The notes under the pieces were generated by a model. That model was not told the DNA's origin. It ran no database searches and saw nothing but the letters and a program-made list of their open reading frames with translations. Positions 8,745 to 21,611 of a stretch of 24,440 bases of DNA are shown piece by piece (the stretch's first letter is position 1; every line of letters begins with the position of its first letter). A program made the translations under genes and the position numbers. Source of the stretch: Deinococcales bacterium (GTDB taxonomy: Bacteria; Deinococcota; Deinococci; Deinococcales; JAAFIG01); NCBI GenBank assembly GCA_043778225.1, contig JAYWGM010000050.1, forward strand, positions 1 to 24,440, given 5' to 3'.

Positions 8745-10721
8745 CTAATCGAGTGTCAGTTCCTCGGCTCGGGTCAAATGGGCTTGGCTGTCCTCGAGCG
8801 CCATAAGCCTTGAGGCTTCGGCGGCAGCTTGCAGGCTGTACTCTCGGGCTGCTTGGATTTGATTTGCACCCAGCGCATGCAGTACCAAAATGGCGGCTGG
8901 CGCACCAATAACCTCGAGCGCCCGCAGGGCTTGCAGATGCAGTGTACTTTGCAACATTTCCGAAGTCCCTTCGAGAATTGCCTCGAGAATCAAGTCGTGG
9001 GTAAAACGTGTCCCCACCATAATTTTAGCTTTCTCGAGAATTTCGATGTTGCTGGCTACTCGTTGCCAAGTCCATTCTAGTGCTACTTGGGCTAAACGGC
9101 TGCTAAACTGCTCTCCTGTGATGGCTGCAAAACGAGCCAAAAGCAAAGCCTGATTTGGTAATTTTTCTAGGCGTAATTGGGTTATTTCGTAAGCTCGAGG
9201 AATGCTTGAAAGTTGTATTTGCCGAATCTGTAGACCCCTTTCTAATAAAGCATGAGCGGTTTCGAGAACCAAAAGTGGATTGCCGCCCGTAAAACGCATA
9301 ACTTGGCTCATTAAAGGCTCAAGTCGTGGGTCAATACTTTTAAGGTATTGCTGAACGGCTTTTCTTGGCAATGGCTGTATATCAATCCATTCAGCCAAAC
9401 CAAGCTGTACCCAATCGCGTAAACTTGCTTCGATTTCGGGTTTTAAGCTATCGTTACGAAAAATAAAAACCGAACGTGGAAAACCCGGTTTATACGGCAA
9501 GAATTTAGAATGTAAATAGATGCCGGCTTTAGAAGAAGAAGGGTCAACAAATTGTACATCATCAAATAACAAGGTTGCCCACTTGCTCTCGAGCGAAGCC
9601 AAGCAATACATTTGGGCTTGGGCTTCAAAAAAACGCAAGCGGTCTTGTTCGTTATTAATGGGTGCAGGAGCAACCCCGTAAGCTGGTACAATTCGTGCCA
9701 TTTCTGAGCGCACCCAATCTGGAAGCTGTAAATCAGGATGATCCAAACGCATTTGTTCATAACAACGAGCGTGCGTGGTGTAAGGTACAAAAGAATCACC
9801 CGGTCTGCCCCAAACGTGCCAAAAAGTGCCTTTGCTACGCACAAAATCAAGTGCTAATCGGCTTTTGCCGATACCCGATTCACCCGAAATCAGAATGGTT
9901 TTACCAGCTTGCCAAGCGGCTTCCATCCGTGCCCATTCTTGCTCACGACCCAACAAAGGCAAAGCTGTCACGGGTACAACAGGTTTAGAACCCTTAAAAA
10001 CTTCAAGATTCAACAAGGCTAAACACCCTGAAGTATCACCAGATAAGGCTAACTCGAGGGCGGCTTGGGTTATTTCGACAGGCGAAACCCCATAAGCCTC
10101 GTGTAAAACTGCCATAAACGTATCAGCAGCTTTTTTACAAAGCGCACTTTCGCCTAAAGCCCCCAAAGTCAGCAACCACCAACGAGCAGCTTCTTCGCTT
10201 GGTTCAAAGCGGTCTGTCGCCGCCGCCTCGAGCCACGGCAAGGCTTGGCGCAATGCCCCGCGCTCCAAAGTTTGTCGAGCCAGTTCAAATGCCAAACGGC
10301 AACGCTCTGAAGCAAAACGCCGACGCTGGCTCTCGAGCCACTCCTCGAATTCGCCACCTAAGCCCATATGCCAATCGCGGAAACGCAAACCTTGCAAAAA
10401 CTCTTTTTCGCACAGATGAAAACGTTTGAGCGGGTCTTGACTGGACTCGAGAATATCGGATTGCACCTTGCCAAGCGCCAACGAAGAACTGTCTGCGCTA
10501 AAAATACCCGAGCCAAGCGCTGCCACAATTTCGCCACGCACCACCGAAAGGTTATTCAGGGCATCGTGAGTACCAGACCAAAACAGGGCGGCTAATTGCC
10601 GCCGCGAAGTCCGACCCTCGAGCGCTAAGTATGCAAGTAGGGCAAAGGCTTTATTGGAGAGTTTGGCAGGGTCAGACTCGAGCAACGCCCGTGGAAAACC
10701 AAAAAAATGAAGATGAATCAA
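8745..10721 (-). CDS. SARP/BTAD transcriptional regulator with STAND-type AAA ATPase
   Basis: N-terminal wHTH (KAFALLAYLALEG..SRRQLAALFW), BTAD (EFEEWLESQR, EEAARWWL), Walker A GESGIGKS, Walker B LLFDDVQ, TGGNPL and FTHDL. The likely start is TTG 10721, preceded by GGAGGG. Confidence 0.88.
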   Translation of the reverse strand: MIHLHFFGFPRALLESDPAKLSNKAFALLAYLALEGRTSRRQLAALFWSGTHDALNNLSVVRGEIVAALGSGIFSADSSSLALGKVQSDILESSQDPLKRFHLCEKEFLQGLRFRDWHMGLGGEFEEWLESQRRRFASERCRLAFELARQTLERGALRQALPWLEAAATDRFEPSEEAARWWLLTLGALGESALCKKAADTFMAVLHEAYGVSPVEITQAALELALSGDTSGCLALLNLEVFKGSKPVVPVTALPLLGREQEWARMEAAWQAGKTILISGESGIGKSRLALDFVRSKGTFWHVWGRPGDSFVPYTTHARCYEQMRLDHPDLQLPDWVRSEMARIVPAYGVAPAPINNEQDRLRFFEAQAQMYCLASLESKWATLLFDDVQFVDPSSSKAGIYLHSKFLPYKPGFPRSVFIFRNDSLKPEIEASLRDWVQLGLAEWIDIQPLPRKAVQQYLKSIDPRLEPLMSQVMRFTGGNPLLVLETAHALLERGLQIRQIQLSSIPRAYEITQLRLEKLPNQALLLARFAAITGEQFSSRLAQVALEWTWQRVASNIEILEKAKIMVGTRFTHDLILEAILEGTSEMLQSTLHLQALRALEVIGAPAAILVLHALGANQIQAAREYSLQAAAEASRLMALEDSQAHLTRAEELTLD

Positions 10722-10994
10722 GAAAACCCTCCGAATTAGATAAAAAATACCAGTGCCAATGCAATTTTTCAGTTGGGATAGATGCAAAGCATTCAAGCGG
10801 GATGACGAAAAACAAACACCAAAAAGTCCTACAAGACCATCTCAACAATCTTTACTCAGACAGCCATTGATAAGACTATCAGAAAATCAGGTTTATCCAA
10901 AGAAAGTCAGCAAAAAAGCTGTCAAGAATTCATTGATATACTTTTCTACACTCAAAAAATCGCACATCAGAAAAAGCTCATTTAGACTTTAGAT

Positions 10995-11025: not shown

Positions 11026-11398
11026 CATCGCACCATAGACAAAAAACATGATGGACGGTACAAAATCAAGACTCCGCTAAGTCAGACTTTTTTAAGGGTA
11101 GAAACGTCAAAATTGTATTCTTAGGAATTCTTTATAAACCTAAGTTGTTAAGCAGTATCGCAGTTGCTTTGTAGGAAAAATAAAGCCTCATCAGATTTTT
11201 CAGACTAAGGGAATAAGCCATTGAAATAGCAGTATGAAAAACTTCACACTAAGTCTGAATGAGTCCGACACTCGAGAATAGGAATAAGGAGGTACACAAT
11301 TTTGCGGAAATAAGCAAACCAGAAAAAAAGCGCGAATTGGTGAGATAGCGATAAATCAAAAGCACAAAGAAACCTAAGCAGAAGTGAAAGGAAAGCAA

Positions 11399-11539
11399 AT
11401 GAAAAACAAAGCAATTTATGAAGCACCAAAACTCGAGGAACATGGAAAGTACACTGTGATAACTGGCGGTAGCGAAGAGATATTCAGTCCAGATTTTTTT
11501 GAAGTGTCTAATCTTCCAACTTTCGAGGATCTAAAATAG
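11399..11539 (+). CDS. 46-aa lasso-peptide-precursor-like small protein (below the ORF track cutoff)
   Basis: MKNKAIYEAPKLEEHGKYTVITG-GSEEIFSPDFFEVSNLPTFEDLK. AAGGA RBS 6 nt upstream, YxxPxL-xxx-G-xxxxx-T leader motif, predicted core Gly1 with Asp9. Confidence 0.78.
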   Translation: MKNKAIYEAPKLEEHGKYTVITGGSEEIFSPDFFEVSNLPTFEDLK

Positions 11540-11588: not shown

Positions 11589-14500
11589 ATGAAAATCAAT
11601 AAAAGTCAAGTCGTCGGAGTCATAGGGGCTTTGGTGCTTGCGAGTTGCACAAGCCAAAATCTTGTACAGCCACCAAATGTTGAATCTGAACGCAGAGTCG
11701 TTGGAATTGTCAATGTTGAGTTTCTGATGTCAGAAAATAACAATTTAGTCATGGCAAATGCCAAATTTCAACCCAATTCAAAACTCTCAACCCAAACATC
11801 TCCATTGACAGATAATTCGATCACGTTGGAAAGAGTATTCGGAACACGAGTAGACTACTTTCCAACACGCCAACGCTTTGTTGCTTCAACATTAAGACTT
11901 ACGAATAATACAAATTTGGCGTTCAAAAACTTAACAATTTATGGTATCAATCGGGTAAGTAGTATCAATGGTACTGCTTTTACGAACCTGCTAAGGGAAA
12001 ATAGTACACCAATTGCAGACCCAGCAGGCACCGCAATACGAATTAAACCAAACCATGGTATGCAAATCAATGCGACAACCCTGTCACTTGCAGTAGACCC
12101 TAACAAAGCCGATTTACAGGTTATTACTCCTGCGGAAGCCGATGCTATTGAATTATTGCCTGCAATGCTAGGTCCGACAGGACTTATTGCAACCAAACAG
12201 ATTCAGCAAGTTCTCGAGTATGGATTTGTGGCACGCAACTTCGCAACTTCAGGAAATAAGCGTACAATAGCCGCTAGTGGTGGAACAGGACAGGTAAGTA
12301 TCGCCCTAAATTTACCACTTGAAACAGATTCTTTTGAAAGCCCTGCCCGTTTGTTTTGGTCATTTCTAGTTGTGGATGAACCTGTTACTCGTGTGACCCG
12401 CAGTGTCGAAGAAGGAAACGACATTCTAAATGTTGCCAATCGTGCCGATGATACTGGTGTTATTGCGCCAGATGTTCGTGAAGTCTTGATGATGGGACGC
12501 GATGTTGCCAATATTCCAACCACAACGACTTCAACAGGTGGTCAAGAGTACAAAATTGCTCCATTATCCCCAGCACTCAATTTGGTTCAAGTGCCTTACA
12601 ATCAAGTTCGTGTTGGTACAGTAGCCCCAACATTTATCAGCGACTTTGGCGAAATCTTTGTCCAAGCCAATGCTTCTCCGGGTGGTAATGGGTCTTCGGG
12701 TTTACCATTCAAAACCATTCAAGAAGGCGTAGATGTTGCTGTATTAGGCGCTAACGATATTGTTCGTGTTCGCAGTGGTACATATCCTGGCAATGTTAAT
12801 GTCAATAAAGATGTACGCATTTTCGGACCTGCGTCAGGTACAGATGGTCGTGATGTTACCCGTTGCGTAACTGGTGTTGGACCAAGCTGCGCCAGCGATG
12901 CTGTAATAAAAGGTGCAGTAACCATCTCTTCAAGTGCGGCAGCTACATTCTCGGGTTTCCGTTTCTTGGATAATAGTCCTCAGGGTGTTGCACCAGATGT
13001 TTTCTTACTCGATATTACAACTGTGCAGAACCACTTGATTGAAAATAACGTTTTCTACCGTGATGGTGTTGTTGCAGAAACCTCTCCAAATAGTGGTGTG
13101 TACGCTTTTGTGGGTGGAGGCAATACAAATAAGCAAGTTGGTGCAATTCGCACGGCTGTCGAAAATTCACCTTCAACCAACAAAATTGTTATTCAAAAGA
13201 ATCGCATTAGTGGTAATCCTGTTAATGCCTCTGGTATCTATGCTAATAAGAGTTGGGGTGCTTCCCGTGCGCCAGCAGTTAGTATCGGTGGTGGCACAAG
13301 TGGAAAACTTGACTTCAAAGACAATGATATTGATTCTGCTCGAGGTGCTTTGTACATTGATAAACCGAATGCAGACCATGTAGTCACTGGCAATACCTTC
13401 AAAGACAATGGCACAGCCTTTGGTCTGACGAATGTCACTCTTTCCAGTTTCTCAATTACTGGTAATACATTTAGTACAACAAGTGACGCAATACCACCAT
13501 TGCCAGCCAACCGTTTACTGGACCGTAAAGAAGTCACTTACTTTAACTTGCGTAACGCCGTACCAAATACGTTCACTTTAACGGCTTCCAATAACACCTA
13601 CGATGGTAAATTGCCATCTGCCATGACCAAGCCAGAATTGTTTGATCTCGAGGATCAGACCGATCACCGCATTGATGCTGCTGCTTGGGGCTTGGTGCGT
13701 TTTAAGCCAACTGAGTTGTACGTCACGATTTTCTCTTGTGCAGCCGATCCTTTGTGTAACGCCGGTGATGCCAATCCACAACGTGCCATTGATGCAGCTA
13801 CCGCAGGTGATACAGTCAACATCGAAGCTGGAACATATACCAATCAACTAAGCATCGCCAAGAATCTGAACATTGTTGGTGATGGTGCGACCACAATTAT
13901 TCAAGCTCCAGCAGGGGCAGCTTTGGTTGTGAATGGTGGTACAAACAACAATGCCAACTTAATTGATATGACTGCGGGTACGGTCAGCATGACGATGCTT
14001 AAAATTAAAGGACCGCATACTAAATCTGGTAGTCCTTGTAACAGCACCATGAAATTGAATCGTGGCATTTCTATCTCGGGTGGGGCATTAACCATGACCG
14101 ATTCGTTTATAGATTCAATTCGTGATACAGCTATATTTAATTGCGCCAATCAGGGTGTTGGTATTTATGTGGGTTCGGGTAGCCTGAATATCTCTGGTTC
14201 AGAAATTACCAATTTCCAATCTGGTGGTATTCTTGTGACTGGTGCAAGCAGCAGTGCAATCATCGATGATAATTTGATCCAAGGCAACACAGCCAACCCT
14301 GTGACTTCCAGAGGAATCGAAGTTGCCAGTGGTGGCGTGGCAACCATCACCAATAACGGTATCAAAGATGTACAATGCCCAACTTGTGTCGCCAACGAAG
14401 ATGTTGGAATTGGTATTTTGGTTCGTACCACTGGTCTTGTTACGATTACAGGTAATAACACCATCGAAAATAACGAATTGGGTATTAACGCTCGTGGTGC

Positions 14501-14963
14501 AGGGCTGAACTTGGTCATTAATACCAATACATTCACGGGTAATCTGGATGCTGGTGTGCGCTTCTTTGCCAATGAAGGTCTTTCTACACCTGCTTCGGGT
14601 AATGTTACTTTTAACACCAATACTCTGGTTGGTCCAGTCGTTCCTGGTGCATCGGTTTGCTTTGATGCAGAAACTAACTTGCTTGCCTCTGCCAGCTTGA
14701 CTGTAACAGGGACTGGTAATAAGCTCAGCAAGTGCAATTATGCAATTGAACTCAATGATTCTGCTATTATCGCCAATAAAATCAATCTGAGTTTGCAAAG
14801 CGGTAACATTGATGGTGTGACCCGTGATATGTTCAACACTGGTTCGCCTGCACCTAGTCTTCTTGACAACTGGTGGGTAACAACTGTTGGTCCATTCCCA
14901 CTCAATCTTCCAAGCATTGTAGGCGCGGCAAACACTGCACCAGTGGCAGTTGCTCCTTACTAA
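11589..14963 (+). CDS. Large surface lipoprotein with two right-handed beta-helix (pectin-lyase-fold/DUF1565-like) modules
   Basis: ATG 11589 with GAGGT RBS; lipobox LVLASC (Cys20). Beta-helix caps PFKTIQEGVD..VRVRSGTY and PQRAIDAATAGDTVNIEAGTY are followed by Asn/Gly/Ile-rich repeats (ITGNTF, IDDNLI, ITNNGI). Confidence 0.85.
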   Translation: MKINKSQVVGVIGALVLASCTSQNLVQPPNVESERRVVGIVNVEFLMSENNNLVMANAKFQPNSKLSTQTSPLTDNSITLERVFGTRVDYFPTRQRFVASTLRLTNNTNLAFKNLTIYGINRVSSINGTAFTNLLRENSTPIADPAGTAIRIKPNHGMQINATTLSLAVDPNKADLQVITPAEADAIELLPAMLGPTGLIATKQIQQVLEYGFVARNFATSGNKRTIAASGGTGQVSIALNLPLETDSFESPARLFWSFLVVDEPVTRVTRSVEEGNDILNVANRADDTGVIAPDVREVLMMGRDVANIPTTTTSTGGQEYKIAPLSPALNLVQVPYNQVRVGTVAPTFISDFGEIFVQANASPGGNGSSGLPFKTIQEGVDVAVLGANDIVRVRSGTYPGNVNVNKDVRIFGPASGTDGRDVTRCVTGVGPSCASDAVIKGAVTISSSAAATFSGFRFLDNSPQGVAPDVFLLDITTVQNHLIENNVFYRDGVVAETSPNSGVYAFVGGGNTNKQVGAIRTAVENSPSTNKIVIQKNRISGNPVNASGIYANKSWGASRAPAVSIGGGTSGKLDFKDNDIDSARGALYIDKPNADHVVTGNTFKDNGTAFGLTNVTLSSFSITGNTFSTTSDAIPPLPANRLLDRKEVTYFNLRNAVPNTFTLTASNNTYDGKLPSAMTKPELFDLEDQTDHRIDAAAWGLVRFKPTELYVTIFSCAADPLCNAGDANPQRAIDAATAGDTVNIEAGTYTNQLSIAKNLNIVGDGATTIIQAPAGAALVVNGGTNNNANLIDMTAGTVSMTMLKIKGPHTKSGSPCNSTMKLNRGISISGGALTMTDSFIDSIRDTAIFNCANQGVGIYVGSGSLNISGSEITNFQSGGILVTGASSSAIIDDNLIQGNTANPVTSRGIEVASGGVATITNNGIKDVQCPTCVANEDVGIGILVRTTGLVTITGNNTIENNELGINARGAGLNLVINTNTFTGNLDAGVRFFANEGLSTPASGNVTFNTNTLVGPVVPGASVCFDAETNLLASASLTVTGTGNKLSKCNYAIELNDSAIIANKINLSLQSGNIDGVTRDMFNTGSPAPSLLDNWWVTTVGPFPLNLPSIVGAANTAPVAVAPY

Positions 14964-14975
14964 ACAATCTCAAGT

Positions 14976-15009
14976 AAAAGAACCCCTCTTCGTGAGGGGT
15001 TTTTCTTTT
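14976..15009. terminator. Bidirectional intrinsic terminator
   Basis: AAAAG-AACCCCTC-TTCGT-GAGGGGTT-TTTCTTTT between convergent genes. Confidence 0.88.
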
Positions 15010-15021
15010 GTCCTATTGAAA

Positions 15022-15816
15022 TTAACGTTTTAAGAATCTCTTGGCTCGAGCCAAAAGCCTTTGCCAAATACTGCTTTTATGAGTTGCACGAATCCCGTGC
15101 ATTGTAATTTCATAACCCATTTTCTCGTAGAAGCGAATGTTCTCTGGATGTACCCCTAGAAAAACATGGGTATTACCAACGGCGGCAGCATCCGAATGTA
15201 TTCTTTGCATAATGGCAGTTGCTAAACCCTGCTTTCGGGCTTTGAGTTGCGTATTTACATCGCTGACCCAACTCGAGCCATCCGCGCCCTGAGAATTCCT
15301 TGCCCATGACAGCATTTTTTTATTCTCGAGAATGGCGTACAAATAACTGCCCATTTTCTGAGTTGGTAACTCAAAAAACTGAGAATTTGAGGCTACTGCT
15401 GCTTGGGCATCAAAATGCTTTCTTAAAATGCTGTGGCTGGTGCTTTGGTTCAAGTCCGAGTGAAGCGTTTTTCGCATTAAGAAAAACTTCTTAAAAGCGA
15501 CCGAACGATTTCTCGAGTAAACCAAACTCATTTGTTCTATGGCTATTTCGGATTGGCAGAAATGATACGCTGTGAAATGACTTATTTGTTCAGTTTGAAT
15601 AAATTCTAATATTGCTTTGGGATTTTGTTCAGCACTGATAATAAAAATCTCTTGCTCGCCTTGGTTTTTAATGTGCCAAATACCTGCCTTATAATGAAGT
15701 TGTGCGGCTTTGTATAAACCGCGCATGACCAGCAAATGAGCAACTACAGATTCAAGTTCGCTAGGTTTAGCGTCTGGTAGGGCAGAGTCTGGCATAATCG
15801 TAATCATACACAGCAT
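15022..15816 (-). CDS. GNAT family N-acetyltransferase
   Basis: C-terminal VSDVNT...ARKQGLATAIM (motif A) and NIRFYEKMGY. The exact start is uncertain. Confidence 0.8.
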   Translation of the reverse strand: MLCMITIMPDSALPDAKPSELESVVAHLLVMRGLYKAAQLHYKAGIWHIKNQGEQEIFIISAEQNPKAILEFIQTEQISHFTAYHFCQSEIAIEQMSLVYSRNRSVAFKKFFLMRKTLHSDLNQSTSHSILRKHFDAQAAVASNSQFFELPTQKMGSYLYAILENKKMLSWARNSQGADGSSWVSDVNTQLKARKQGLATAIMQRIHSDAAAVGNTHVFLGVHPENIRFYEKMGYEITMHGIRATHKSSIWQRLLARAKRFLKR

Positions 15817-15860: not shown

Positions 15861-16454
15861 CTAGCCCAGCACTGGCTCTTCAACATCATTGGCAGCATCG
15901 GCTTCGGCAGGGGTGGTCGCACCGCGCTCACGCAGGGGCATAAAGCCGCCGTCTATGTCCGGCAAATGCGTAAATTTATCCACCATGTCAATCAGTTTTT
16001 GGGCGGTGGTTTCCTTAAAAGCAATCACTTCGACCCGTTTACCGCGTTCCATCAAGACTTCGGCAATGTCGGTAAAGTCGCCGTCGCCACTGCCCAGCAC
16101 AATCACATCCAAATGCTCTGCCAAGCGCACCATGTCGGCACAGATGCCCATGTCCCAGTTGCCTTCCCAAATAATTTTACCAGCATCGGTGGTGTGATGC
16201 ACCTGTAAGGTCATGCGCCTGACTTTATAGCCGAGGGTCGAAAGTTTATAGATAAAGGGCCAAGCACTGGTGTCGGATTCGCGTTCGACCACATACGAAA
16301 TAGCCCGAAATAACTCGCGGTTTTCGCCCGTTCCATATTTGAGGATGCTCTCGAAATTGACGGTTCGCTGGTAGTAGTCTCGAGCCGAGTGATAGAGGTT
16401 TTGGGTATCGATAAAAATACCGACTTGCGGACGAATTTTCATTGAATGCGACAT
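15861..16454 (-). CDS. NYN domain (LabA/DUF88, PIN-like) protein
   Basis: GIFIDTQNL, GNWDMGICADM, LGSGDGDF, GKRVEV; AAGGAG RBS. Confidence 0.9.
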   Translation of the reverse strand: MSHSMKIRPQVGIFIDTQNLYHSARDYYQRTVNFESILKYGTGENRELFRAISYVVERESDTSAWPFIYKLSTLGYKVRRMTLQVHHTTDAGKIIWEGNWDMGICADMVRLAEHLDVIVLGSGDGDFTDIAEVLMERGKRVEVIAFKETTAQKLIDMVDKFTHLPDIDGGFMPLRERGATTPAEADAANDVEEPVLG

Positions 16455-18961: not shown

Positions 18962-19375
18962 TTAACGAATCAGATGGACTTGGCAGCGTAGGTTTGGCAG
19001 TTTTGCCCAGTTCTGCTCGGCGGTCAAGACCTCGAGTTGCTGCATTTCGGCAGTTGCCAGACAGATACAATCGCCAAGCGATAATTGATAGGGGTGTCGC
19101 CTTGCATAAAAATAAGCAGCAGGCTGTACCAAGGTTTCGAGCAGTGGCACGACCCGTAAATCAAGAGTTTTGATGTCCTGTTCGACTTCATTGACTGGGG
19201 CTTTACCACTCGAAACGAGTTTGCCAATCACTTCGATTAAATTGCTACTGCTGATGGCGGTGCTGGTCTGTAATTGTTGTTCAACCATTTCCCAACCTGT
19301 TTCTTGGGCGAACCAAGCGATTAAAGCACTGGCATCCAGCAACCGTTCCTTGCTGATCCATTTTTTAGTTTTCAT
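18962..19375 (-). CDS. vapC: VapC-type PIN-domain toxin
   Basis: LLDASALIA, NLIEV, LSLGDCICLATA and LTAE supply the PIN acidic residues. ATGA overlap with the upstream partner gene. Confidence 0.88.
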   Translation of the reverse strand: MKTKKWISKERLLDASALIAWFAQETGWEMVEQQLQTSTAISSSNLIEVIGKLVSSGKAPVNEVEQDIKTLDLRVVPLLETLVQPAAYFYARRHPYQLSLGDCICLATAEMQQLEVLTAEQNWAKLPNLRCQVHLIR

Positions 19376-19689
19376 GTTCTTTCGCGGCGGCGCTGCTCGA
19401 GTAATTCAGTCGTTAAATCACGCCCTTGGGTTTGGTATTTACCGCGTAAAGCCGATAAAACTTCGTGGCGCGATATTTGGGGACGATATAATTCCGCCAA
19501 CTGGGCAATTGGTTTTCCCAAGGCTTTCTCAAGTCTAAAAAGCGTCTCTAAACTTGGTGTTGAAGTAGGTTTTTTGACCAAGTTAAAAATTGTGGCTCGC
19601 CCAATTTCGGCATAAGCCGCAAATTCCTCGAGTTTTGTAAGCTCTAAATCTTGCATTCTGGAGCGAATCAGTTGATCTAAATTCTGCAT
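19372..19689 (-). CDS. Putative antitoxin with XRE-type HTH
   Basis: LEEFAAYAEIGRATIFNL...PSLETLFRLEKALG (XRE HTH) and a charged C-terminal tail. Translationally coupled to vapC. Confidence 0.75.
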   Translation of the reverse strand: MQNLDQLIRSRMQDLELTKLEEFAAYAEIGRATIFNLVKKPTSTPSLETLFRLEKALGKPIAQLAELYRPQISRHEVLSALRGKYQTQGRDLTTELLEQRRRERT

Positions 19690-19726: not shown

Positions 19727-21181
19727 CTAGCGGTTTCTGACCAGTGCTTCTAAATAAACCTCGAGATTGGTGTACCCAGCCACGCCCAGCTTTGGCTGCG
19801 AAAGCTGCAAGCCATTGTGGTCTGCCACTCGAGGATTCAAACCATTGGCATTTTCCCATCTGTCGGGCATTCCGTCGTTGTCTGAATCTTGTGGAGCAAC
19901 AGTTGCAGCCCTGGTTTTAAGCGCATCTCGAGCCACGTTCAGACTGCGCGGGGTGGCATCAAAAGTGCTGCTCGAGACAAATTTCATGACTCGAGTGTCA
20001 AAAGCATCCCATGGACGCATTCCGATTTTTGGCGTGTACTCGAGTAGTTTTTGGCTTGGAGTGTAGGTCATGCTTGGAAACTTCAGTCGCTCGAGCGCCG
20101 CCCAAGTGGGTAAACGGTTGGCAAAGAGCATGGTCTGGTCGCGCAGTGCCTCCTTAAAATCGTTGCAGCAATAGACCAGTTGCCAATCGGTGGCAGTCCC
20201 TAGGTTACTGCGGTTGTCCTGCATAAAAAGACGGGTTGGAGTCGAGTCGGGCAAATAATCTGGCGAATTTGTGCCTTCGAGGGTGAGTAAACCAACACTG
20301 GTGCTGTTTTTTGGGTTTTGCAAGGAGTAATTTCCCACCAGATTGGCGCGGTAGTAAATCGGAGCGCTGTTGTAGCCATCTTGTGGTGCATTGACCAAAG
20401 CTGTATTGCCCAACCAGATTGGAAAAGTATGGTCATGAAAAATATTATTTGAAATTTCAAGCTCCATCGTGCTGTTGGTGGCACTTGGGTTTTCTCGAGA
20501 TACCTCGGGAATCCGCCCACCAATCCGTGTCCAAACATTGTGGTGCAAAGAAATTCGGGTCAATGGAAAATTGCGCTTTGGGTCGGTGTAATTCAAAAGC
20601 ATTCCACCAAGGTCGTTGTGTTCGCCAGTGGTTTCTGCCAGTAAACTGTTCTGCACCGTCACATCACTCGAGAAAGAAATCTGGACAGCTTCATCGGTGG
20701 CATTGCCGATCGAAAAATGGTCAATTATAATTCGTTTGGCACGGTGTAAACGTAAGCCATCACCATCCAAAGAAGCTCGAGAACGCAAATAGCGCACAAT
20801 CAGATTGCTTGGTGCAACCCGTGGCAATGGGCAATTATCGGCTTCACAGACCGAATCGCCTTGAATCAACAAACCACGCACCGTGATTCCACTTGGGCTG
20901 GTTTGTCCAGCGATGGTCAGGTTGCCACTCGAGACCATCGGTGTTCCCTCAATCACCCCAGAGACCCGAAAAACAATGGTACGCGCCCCAGTTTGGTCAA
21001 GCGCATTTTGCAAAGACCCAACGCCACTCGAGCGCAGATTAGTAACAGCAATCACTCGTCCGCCACGCCCACCGGTGGCAGTTGCCCCAAAACCCTCTGC
21101 GCCAATAAAAGCTGGCAAAGCTGTTTGAGACGCTAACCCAAGGAAAACTGCCCCAAACAGCCAGACCAAGAAGATTCGCAT
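19727..21181 (-). CDS. Secreted pectate-lyase-like protein (PL1-related beta-helix)
   Basis: Signal peptide, PAFIGAEGFGATATGGRGGRVIAVTNL, TIAGQTSP, IIDHFS, C-terminal DSDNDGMPDRWE...GYTNLEVYL. Start set at ATG 21181. Confidence 0.85.
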   Translation of the reverse strand: MRIFLVWLFGAVFLGLASQTALPAFIGAEGFGATATGGRGGRVIAVTNLRSSGVGSLQNALDQTGARTIVFRVSGVIEGTPMVSSGNLTIAGQTSPSGITVRGLLIQGDSVCEADNCPLPRVAPSNLIVRYLRSRASLDGDGLRLHRAKRIIIDHFSIGNATDEAVQISFSSDVTVQNSLLAETTGEHNDLGGMLLNYTDPKRNFPLTRISLHHNVWTRIGGRIPEVSRENPSATNSTMELEISNNIFHDHTFPIWLGNTALVNAPQDGYNSAPIYYRANLVGNYSLQNPKNSTSVGLLTLEGTNSPDYLPDSTPTRLFMQDNRSNLGTATDWQLVYCCNDFKEALRDQTMLFANRLPTWAALERLKFPSMTYTPSQKLLEYTPKIGMRPWDAFDTRVMKFVSSSTFDATPRSLNVARDALKTRAATVAPQDSDNDGMPDRWENANGLNPRVADHNGLQLSQPKLGVAGYTNLEVYLEALVRNR

Positions 21182-21188
21182 AGAACCC

Positions 21189-21196
21189 AATATACT
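21189..21196. promoter_or_regulatory. Overlapping back-to-back -10 boxes for two leaderless genes
   Basis: Plus strand TATACT-7nt-ATG(21204); minus strand TATATT-7nt-ATG(21181). Confidence 0.6.
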
Positions 21197-21203
21197 CTGC
21201 CTT

Positions 21204-21611
21204 ATGGAAATTACCCTCGGTACGCCGGCACTCCTTTTCCCAGCGATTTCGCTTTTAATGCTGGCGTATACCAACCGCTTTCTGGCACTGGCGGCGCTGA
21301 TTCGGCGCTTGTCCGAAGATTACCAACAAGACCATCAACACGGTATTTTGGAACAAATTAAAGCCTTGCGTTACCGAATTCGGCTGATTCTTTGGATGCA
21401 ATCGGGCGGCATTGCCAGCCTTGCCTTGTGCGTTGCAGCCATGCTTGGGGTGTTGTTTAAGCAAGAAACCATGGCGGTGGTGCTGTTTGCCTCGAGCTTA
21501 ATGCTGATGCTGCTTTCTTTGGTTTTATCGTTGCTCGAGATTCGGGTCTCGACCAATGCCTTAACGGTTGTGCTGCGCGATCTCGAACTTCATAAACATG
21601 GGAATCCATGA
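21204..21611 (+). CDS. DUF2721-like membrane protein
   Basis: TPALLFPAISLLMLAYTNRF and EIRVSTNAL pattern, three hydrophobic segments. Confidence 0.8.
   Translation: MEITLGTPALLFPAISLLMLAYTNRFLALAALIRRLSEDYQQDHQHGILEQIKALRYRIRLILWMQSGGIASLALCVAAMLGVLFKQETMAVVLFASSLMLMLLSLVLSLLEIRVSTNALTVVLRDLELHKHGNP

Follow-up and report, generated by a model that had tools for sequence, protein, structure and literature searches.

The locus examined here raises the question of what a small peptide with a lasso-type leader is made for when no lasso biosynthetic gene is encoded near it. The peptide is the product of a small open reading frame (sORF) in a 24,440-nucleotide stretch of DNA (hereafter the window; contig JAYWGM010000050.1, or C50, of Deinococcales bacterium assembly GCA_043778225.1), which an earlier note, made from the sequence alone, had described as the orphan precursor of a lasso peptide processed in trans or, alternatively, as a lasso-type leader put to another use such as partnering the downstream lipoprotein. 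The answer reached here, held with a little better than even confidence on comparative sequence evidence, is that the sORF encodes a lasso-derived peptide which would be processed in trans to a linear product, which belongs to a multi-copy family spread across the phylum, and which would act together with its own lipoprotein.

Translation of the sORF gave the peptide quoted in the earlier note, and the string AAAGGAAAG was found ahead of its ATG. With the core taken to start at residue 24, Y7 falls at -17, P10 at -14, L12 at -12, G16 at -8 and T22 at -2, the same leader spacing as is reported for lasso precursors in PMC10368454, where the YxxPxL positions are described as those read by recognition element (RRE) proteins in lasso leaders. 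The lasso register claimed for the leader was borne out, the spacing being canonical and the peptide scoring 20.5 bits against the NCBIfam model NF033521 (lasso_leader_L3; cut-off 19). In a six-frame search of the 4,029,277-base genome (an assembly of 4.03 Mb in 107 contigs, 89% complete) this model exceeded its cut-off at one place only, the sORF, and it did so in none of 14 control genomes; the leader match is therefore beyond chance. A motif regular-expression scan of the genome gave 538 matches, mostly spurious, and was dropped. The identical protein is on record in public protein collections, where it stands as a prediction without a name, and a single-sequence search of 5.8 billion proteins matched the peptide to itself alone. 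The reported absence of lasso enzyme genes nearby was likewise confirmed: no PqqD, Transglut_core3 or Asn_synthase domain was found in the 24.4-kb window (Pfam scan of 24 ORFs), and the six-frame genome matches to these domains all lay on other contigs.

The description of the peptide as an orphan did not stand. Twenty-one small frames, found through weak six-frame matches to the leader alone in relatives, were aligned (alignment A1), and the family hidden Markov model (HMM) built from them matched 15 places in the window's genome, namely the sORF and 14 further paralogues. The same model gave matches in 16 of the 19 genomes of the taxonomic family (1-16 per genome; three genomes had none). 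The sORF itself matched the A1 profile with an E-value of 6.5e-15, a figure inflated since the sORF is one of the 21 aligned sequences; unbiased support for its membership comes from its position ahead of a lipoprotein gene with the N-terminal domain (N-domain) described below.

Within A1 the residues Y7, P10, L12, E13 and G23 are invariant (21/21) and Thr22 is kept in 19 of 21, the consensus being Y-x-x-P-K-L-E-Q-H-x-x-Y-x-x-x-T-G-x-S-x-P-x-G. The family peptides are 30-65 amino acids long and consist of a lasso-type leader, a conserved Ser-x-Pro-x-Gly immediately following the point where cleavage is predicted, and a tail with the acidic motif DF-hydrophobic-E. A Ser two or three residues into the core is near-universal (Ser25 in the window copy), and the tail motif [N/G]-D-F-[L/M/F]-[E/D] occurs in many copies, 9-23 residues into the core. 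AGGA or GGAG strings precede the start codon in most copies. The ratio of non-synonymous to synonymous substitution rates (dN/dS) was 0.24-0.47 in four other orthologous or paralogous pairs of the family; selection was measured on these because no orthologue of the window copy was found in seven other genomes of the genus at E<=1e-20 (with the C-terminal part of the lipoprotein as query), from which the sORF-lipoprotein cassette seems to vary. We take the sORF to be a real gene.

When 42 family peptides were compared with NCBIfam, only lasso precursor models matched at E<0.09; NF033521 matched nine of the 42 at E<=1 and two above its cut-off. Outside the taxonomic family, a divergent sORF of the same architecture was found at 13 of 22 fetched N-domain loci, one example of its pattern being ..PY-x-x-P-x-[LV]-x-x-x-G-x-W-x-x-V-T-L-x-[VI]-S-[LAV]-P-[IV]-G.. 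These outside sORFs keep Gly(-8), which is lost in most copies of the window's own family, and it is on account of this loss that only the window copy passes NF033521 in its genome. On plasmid P1 of Deinococcus gobiensis I-0 the sORF lies directly before an N-domain gene and is annotated as a 63-amino-acid hypothetical protein. The family is unnamed, and that annotation was the one public record checked.

Some variation within the family was also noted. Two family sORFs stand in tandem ahead of one lipoprotein gene at C49:10367-10677 in the window's genome (G000, locus L074). At loci L014 and L020 (genomes G008 and G018) a peptide sub-type has two Cys residues in its closing ...ICFQDCP(PSP). 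Core Cys pairs also occur at L026 and L053, and part of the family may thus undergo disulfide formation or Cys chemistry of another kind.

It was observed that 14 of the 15 family sORFs in the window's genome lie directly upstream of a lipoprotein gene, and that 13 of these lipoproteins carry the shared N-domain; the exceptions are the C75 sORF, which precedes a lipoprotein lacking that domain, and the C60 sORF, which is a degenerate remnant. In 10 of the 15 copies a shared ATGA holds both the stop of the sORF and the start of the lipoprotein gene, and two more pairs overlap by 1 and 8 nt. In three relatives an sORF match was found just upstream of the scored N-domain genes in five of seven (G003), six of seven (G006) and four of seven (G013) cases. 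The proposal that the leader had been repurposed to partner the downstream lipoprotein is thus strongly supported by genome comparison, as the pairing also recurs in other families of the phylum. Judged by gene order, the peptide family is probably encoded nearly always directly ahead of surface lipoprotein genes in Deinococcus-type bacteria, and no known system explains the tie of each copy to such a gene. The partners differ in their C-terminal domains (Table 1). On C104 an array of two sORF-lipoprotein pairs and a third lipoprotein gene was seen, while on C3 a single sORF stands ahead of three N-domain genes. Two or three phage-tail-collar ('tail fiber') genes follow N-domain lipoprotein genes at L046 6072-7634 (G128), L070 8609-9635 (D. 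gobiensis plasmid P1) and L068 6011-7240, hinting from sequence at a larger surface or contractile-like assembly.

The N-domains of the lipoproteins in the window's genome share 24-30% identity (alignment A2, built from seven sequences with the window copy included, so that its E-value of 3e-101 is inflated). Run against 1.84 billion proteins, the N-domain profile picked out 729 representative ones at E<=0.001, with the domain at the protein N-terminus in the 150 best matches. In a phylum-wide sample of 301 genomes, 74 proved to have the domain when seven candidates per genome were scored. All nine named records that carry it are Deinococcus plasmids. An AlphaFold2 model made from 36 sequences was mostly beta, with a predicted local distance difference test score (pLDDT) of 82.7 and a predicted template modelling score (pTM) of 0.83. 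Foldseek gave nothing at E<=0.001 for this model against the PDB; the best match in the VIA-align wide search was a white spot syndrome virus envelope protein (Z 6.6), within the noise range of the tool, and the ESM Atlas returned unnamed clusters only, with scores below 0.9. Prediction of a complex between the peptide and the N-domain scored 0.01 against a mark of 0.32, a verdict neither way.

A set of candidate modifying enzymes was found on two other contigs of the window's genome: a PqqD-type RRE and an HprK-like kinase on C64, and a fusion of a nucleotidyltransferase with a lasso B2 protease on C44 (Table 1). Comparison of four such fusions with the stand-alone lasso B2 showed no change in the B2 domain at the catalytic Cys or at His-Ala-Trp. 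In genomes G072, G215 and G128 the counterparts of these enzymes cluster with the sORF and an N-domain or lipoprotein gene, and neither a cyclase nor an ABC exporter was found in the three clusters (phmmer with the cyclase of a lasso cluster on contig C92, considered below, and ORF lists). The PqqD proteins encoded in the clusters of other genomes are closer to the C64 PqqD (E 7e-16) than to the B1 protein of C92 (E 4e-4). The fusion was present in 13 of 13 outside genomes with the sORF, compared to four of nine without the sORF at the fetched locus. In the 301-genome phylum sample, N-domain and fusion were found together in 55 genomes, the N-domain without the fusion in 19, the fusion without the N-domain in 41 (among them G276, flagged unpublished) and neither in 186. 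Transglut_core3 gave no match in the three genomes of the taxonomic family that lack the sORF, nor in three poor or incomplete genomes with one or two sORF matches. The C44 fusion lies inside a polysaccharide locus (L045, C44:58000-74000) with glycosyltransferases, a flippase-like gene, a DegT-type aminotransferase and dTDP-rhamnose genes, and the G072 enzyme set is likewise flanked by glycosyltransferases.

Table 1. Features of the window and of related loci. Plain numbers are window positions; C, L and G mark contigs, loci and genomes.
Feature	Location	Strand	Basis or remark
sORF, 46 codons (coordinates with stop included)	11399..11539	+	Translation; member of the lasso-leader-type peptide family; ends in TAG
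Shine-Dalgarno-like AAAGGAAAG, purine-rich	11387..11395	+	Read from sequence; GGA 6-8 nt ahead of ATG
YEAPKL (YxxPxL motif), leader -17 to -12, presumed RRE-binding element	11417..11434	+	Y, P, L invariant 21/21
Thr22-Gly23: Thr at -2 and last leader residue; presumed B2 cleavage after Gly23	11462..11467	+	Alignment A1; cleavage inferred
Predicted core GSEEIFSPDFFEVSNLPTFEDLK	11468..11536	+	Alignment A1
Ser25 in predicted core	11471-11473	+	Aligned with the conserved Ser of the family
DFFE in predicted core	11492-11503	+	Corresponds to the acidic tail motif of the family
Lipoprotein gene, 1124 aa	11589..14963	+	ORF list; signal peptide, lipobox LASC at residues 17-20; 49 nt after sORF stop
N-terminal domain, ~290 aa, beta-sandwich, no known family	11595..12509	+	Alignments A2 and A3; profile match at coordinates
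Right-handed beta-helix region, variable C-terminal part	14160..14639	+	Pfam PF13229 (Beta_helix), residues 858-1017; weak NosD-family match
Terminator-like hairpin closing the sORF-lipoprotein unit	14978..15004	+	Pattern scan: 11-bp stem then T-run
STAND-type regulator (AAA_16), divergently transcribed	8745..10796	-	Pfam AAA_16; paralogue of BTAD/NB-ARC/TPR regulators beside other module copies
PqqD-type RRE, 83 aa	C64:7670-7921		PF05402 60 bits; best NCBIfam model lasso_PqqD_Strm 54 bits, cut-off 70
HprK-like P-loop kinase, 297 aa	C64:7918-8811		GESGRGKTT P-loop; overlaps PqqD gene by ATGA; sole model match ScmC, 21 bits
Nucleotidyltransferase-lasso B2 protease fusion, 437 aa	C44:65469-66782		NTP_transf_5 98.8 bits, GDVDVLI; NF033537 (lasso_biosyn_B2) 47.6 bits, cut-off 33
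sORF, N-domain gene, GT2, PqqD, HprK-like, fusion	G072		All on one strand
PqqD, HprK-like, fusion, sORF, lipoprotein	G215		
PqqD, HprK-like, sORF, lipoprotein	G128		Fusion 4 kb on
Fusion beside N-domain gene	G166		
Lipoprotein of the window	C50		C-terminal domain: beta-helix
Lipoprotein	C104		C-terminal domain: RCC1 repeats
Lipoprotein, second gene	C104		C-terminal domain: FG-GAP
Lipoprotein	C33		C-terminal domain: ExeM/NucH nuclease with Big_2
Lipoprotein	C92		C-terminal domain: delta-60/DUF5122 propeller
Lipoprotein	C89		C-terminal domain: proprotein-convertase P domain
Lasso B2 protease	C92		85 bits on NF033537
Lasso B1	C92		PqqD-type
Lasso cyclase	C92		400 bits on NF033535, cyanobacterial lasso cyclase model (cut-off 525); Asn_synthase 110 bits
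Candidate precursor, WVAPQL	L009:10344-10508		Directly after cyclase gene
Extra genes of the C92 cluster	C92		PqqD-TylF O-methyltransferase fusion; glycosyltransferase-like gene; HprK-like gene

From these observations we infer that the peptide is bound, phosphorylated, cleaved and tied to the function of its lipoprotein, in the following way. Each sORF would be co-transcribed with a surface lipoprotein gene, most copies being translationally coupled to it. By analogy with phosphorylated lasso systems, the C64 PqqD-type RRE would bind YxxPxL and pass the peptide on to kinase and protease. In PMC10368454 an RRE-assisted HprK-type kinase is described as phosphorylating a lasso precursor, core Ser3 included, and the HprK-like kinase here may similarly phosphorylate the conserved Ser; the near-universal Ser early in the core, Ser25 in the window copy, is the obvious candidate site. 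A PsmN-type nucleotidyltransferase is reported, in PMC6993621, to put a hexose on the phosphate, and the nucleotidyltransferase domain of the fusion may attach a further group of some kind. The B2 domain would then cut the leader off after Thr22-Gly23 and, there being no cyclase, what results would be a modified peptide of linear form. As a best guess, this peptide would serve the N-domain of the lipoprotein as a ligand, a cofactor or a maturation factor.

Several findings weigh against such a scheme. The lipoprotein is exported but the peptide carries no signal sequence, and a physical partnership would need an unexplained export step or an encounter in the cytoplasm. The window copy is atypical in standing apart from its lipoprotein gene by a 49-nt gap, with no ATGA overlap, and in having a core from which the Pro-x-Gly part of the family motif is missing. 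Six of the 15 copies in the window's genome, the window copy included, were used to build A1, and their E-values are inflated. Both the PqqD protein (54 vs 70 bits) and the HprK-like protein (21 vs 125 bits) fall below the NCBIfam cut-offs, and the G128 homologue of the latter scored 44 bits on HprK_rel_A, for which the cut-off is 200. Finally, the co-occurrence counts given above are uncorrected for relatedness and include the 19 N-domain genomes without the fusion and the 41 fusion genomes without the N-domain.

A bolder form of the same scheme is put forward tentatively, as a possibility that is rather more doubtful: the Deinococcota may have converted the lasso toolkit (leader, RRE, B2 protease, kinase and nucleotidyltransferase) to a cyclase-less pathway for short linear phospho- or glyco-phospho-peptides, each dedicated to one surface lipoprotein of a polymorphic family as a cofactor, address tag or plug of its N-domain and needed for display or activity. 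If true, this would be a peptide made by the ribosome and modified after translation (a RiPP), aimed at the producer's own neighbouring protein and not at another cell.

Among the alternatives, the one that survives best is that the sORF is an unprocessed small protein, or an upstream open reading frame (uORF) that governs, by coupling, how the lipoprotein is translated, folded or targeted, its lasso-like leader being a relic. Where ATGA overlaps are present, in 10 of the 15 copies, lipoprotein translation hinges on that of the sORF, the lipoprotein gene is the sole universal neighbour, and in the window's genome the enzyme set is on other contigs. A pure coupling device would not, however, hold Y, P, L, E and G invariant, nor would it show dN/dS values of 0.24-0.47, and the conserved positions are those that RRE proteins read in lasso leaders, as PMC10368454 has it. 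In G072, G215 and G128 the pair has genes for the RRE, the kinase and B2 as neighbours, and the fusion accompanies the outside sORFs in 13 of 13 genomes, so that this explanation is considered unlikely, though it keeps some weight.

Less probable again is that the window copy serves as precursor of a real lasso peptide, being turned in trans into a Gly1-Asp9 macrolactam with a 14-residue tail by the B2, B1 and cyclase of a lasso cluster elsewhere in the genome. The genome-wide search for lasso enzymes proposed in the earlier note did recover a full cluster in the window's genome, at C92:39626-46220 (L009 7626-14220), but a candidate precursor of the cluster's own follows immediately on the cyclase gene; canonical spacing would give it an Ile1-Asp8 ring, with Leu at -2. 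The window copy has Gly1 and Asp9, its leader passes NF033521, and it alone in its genome both keeps Gly(-8) and passes the model; against this, Asp or Glu occurs at core positions 7-9 (counted from the residue after Thr-x) in just four of the 21 A1 members. The Asp9 that had been proposed as the ring acceptor is more readily accounted for as the Asp of P-D-F-F-E, a family tail motif that stands at a variable distance, 9-23 residues into the core, in the paralogues.

Relatives that carry the peptide family also argue against a lasso product. No lasso cyclase candidate was found in six of them (G013, G006, G128, G166, G072 and G096): G013 (a closed genome with eight copies) and G006 (94% complete, nine copies) gave only a 23-bit Asn_synthase match in a frame of about 380 amino acids, a similar weak match being present on C88 of the window's genome; G128 and G166 (99% complete) gave no Asn_synthase or cyclase candidate, and G072 and G096 only short weak Asn_synthase matches. 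In G215 a 656-amino-acid asparagine-synthase-like gene lies 620 kb away. The PqqD proteins clustered with the family in other genomes, moreover, resemble that of C64 and not C92 B1. As for the trans-processed lasso peptide proposed earlier, a lasso cluster does exist in the genome; the proposal as a whole is weakly supported, and a lasso product from the sORF is unlikely on these comparisons. Beside the C92 cluster, an 896-amino-acid IMP-dehydrogenase-like ORF with a long intein-like internal insertion was noted (L009 4939-7629; C92:36938-39628).

It was also considered whether the peptide is a signal read by a neighbouring STAND/TPR regulator that controls the lipoprotein operon. A divergent regulator of this type (BTAD/AAA_16/NB-ARC/TPR) lies within 14-540 bp of the sORF in five of the 15 copies (C50, C92, C75, C17 and C28), the regulator family having 26 paralogous segments in the genome by phmmer (e.g. 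window 8745-10796, C92:728-4159 and C104:8997-11912), and TPR domains often bind peptides. The other 10 copies, however, have no such neighbour, the window regulator shows AAA_16 only in Pfam and no TPR, and the clusters in other genomes are without a regulator; such a role is therefore given little credence. That the sORF stands open merely by chance and bears its motif by accident, as its shortness and its matching itself alone among 5.8 billion proteins might suggest, is refuted by the comparative data (family conservation, a fixed place before lipoprotein genes, Shine-Dalgarno-like strings, ATGA coupling and dN/dS <0.5) and can be set aside.

The remainder of the window was surveyed as well. 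No Rfam RNA family was found in it, and a promoter scan gave no more matches than shuffled controls. A GNAT gene (15022-15816) and an NYN-domain gene (15861-16454) lie just downstream of the lipoprotein gene. An HTH_3/PIN-domain gene pair typical of a toxin-antitoxin module is present at 18962-19689 on the reverse strand, and a 515-amino-acid protein with weak pectate-lyase PelZ/beta-helix similarity and a TSP3 repeat, the second beta-helix protein of the window, is encoded at 19727-21274 on the same strand.

The system to which the favoured scheme, that of a trans-processed linear peptide, comes closest is that of the phosphorylated lasso peptides (paeninodin, pseudomycoidin and BsfA), which comprises a precursor, an HprK-type kinase, a B1 RRE, a B2 protease, a nucleotidyltransferase, a cyclase and an ABC exporter. 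Shared with it are YxxPxL at -17 to -12, Thr at -2, and a genome with a PqqD-type RRE, a B2-type Cys/His domain over its cut-off, a candidate HprK-like kinase and NTP_transf_5; the conserved Ser near the core start also recalls Ser3 of BsfA, the kinase target there. In contrast, the clusters found here have no cyclase or exporter and several whole genomes have no cyclase, B2 is fused to the nucleotidyltransferase, most cores lack a ring-acceptor Asp or Glu, and the precursor genes, of which there are 15 here, are dispersed and go with a lipoprotein gene instead of with the enzymes. As for canonical class II lasso precursors (NF033521), the window copy passes their model (20.5 vs 19 bits) and has Gly1 and Asp9, whereas only two of the 42 family peptides pass and the family has core and tail motifs of its own.

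Prochlorosin lanthipeptides are a case in which one enzyme set serves many scattered precursor genes. The present family resembles them in its many divergent precursors with a shared leader, dispersed in the genome and accompanied by a single-copy enzyme set, but the enzyme class differs and each precursor is paired here with a large lipoprotein gene. Lipidated macrocyclic peptides, RiPPs that use the lipoprotein pathway, similarly link ribosomal peptide modification with bacterial lipoproteins; there, as described in PMC13056109, the precursor itself carries the lipoprotein signal, whereas here the peptide is without a signal sequence and a large protein distinct from it is the lipoprotein. 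No published account of the peptide-lipoprotein module or of a cyclase-less RRE/kinase/B2 system was found in the full-text literature, subscription-only papers not being covered.

Lasso leaders together with RRE and B2 proteins are currently assigned to a single pathway, the end product of which is a threaded macrolactam. The family described here would show that lasso recognition logic has been reused without a cyclase and on a large scale, with 15 copies in this genome and a spread across the phylum, and genome-mining tools anchored on the cyclase would miss it. If the reading is true, it also adds a substrate class for HprK-type peptide kinases and PsmN-type nucleotidyltransferases. The partner lipoproteins form a large, variable surface set whose shared N-domain has neither a name nor a known fold relative, and the peptide would offer a testable handle on how Deinococcus-type bacteria mature or deploy their surface lipoproteins.

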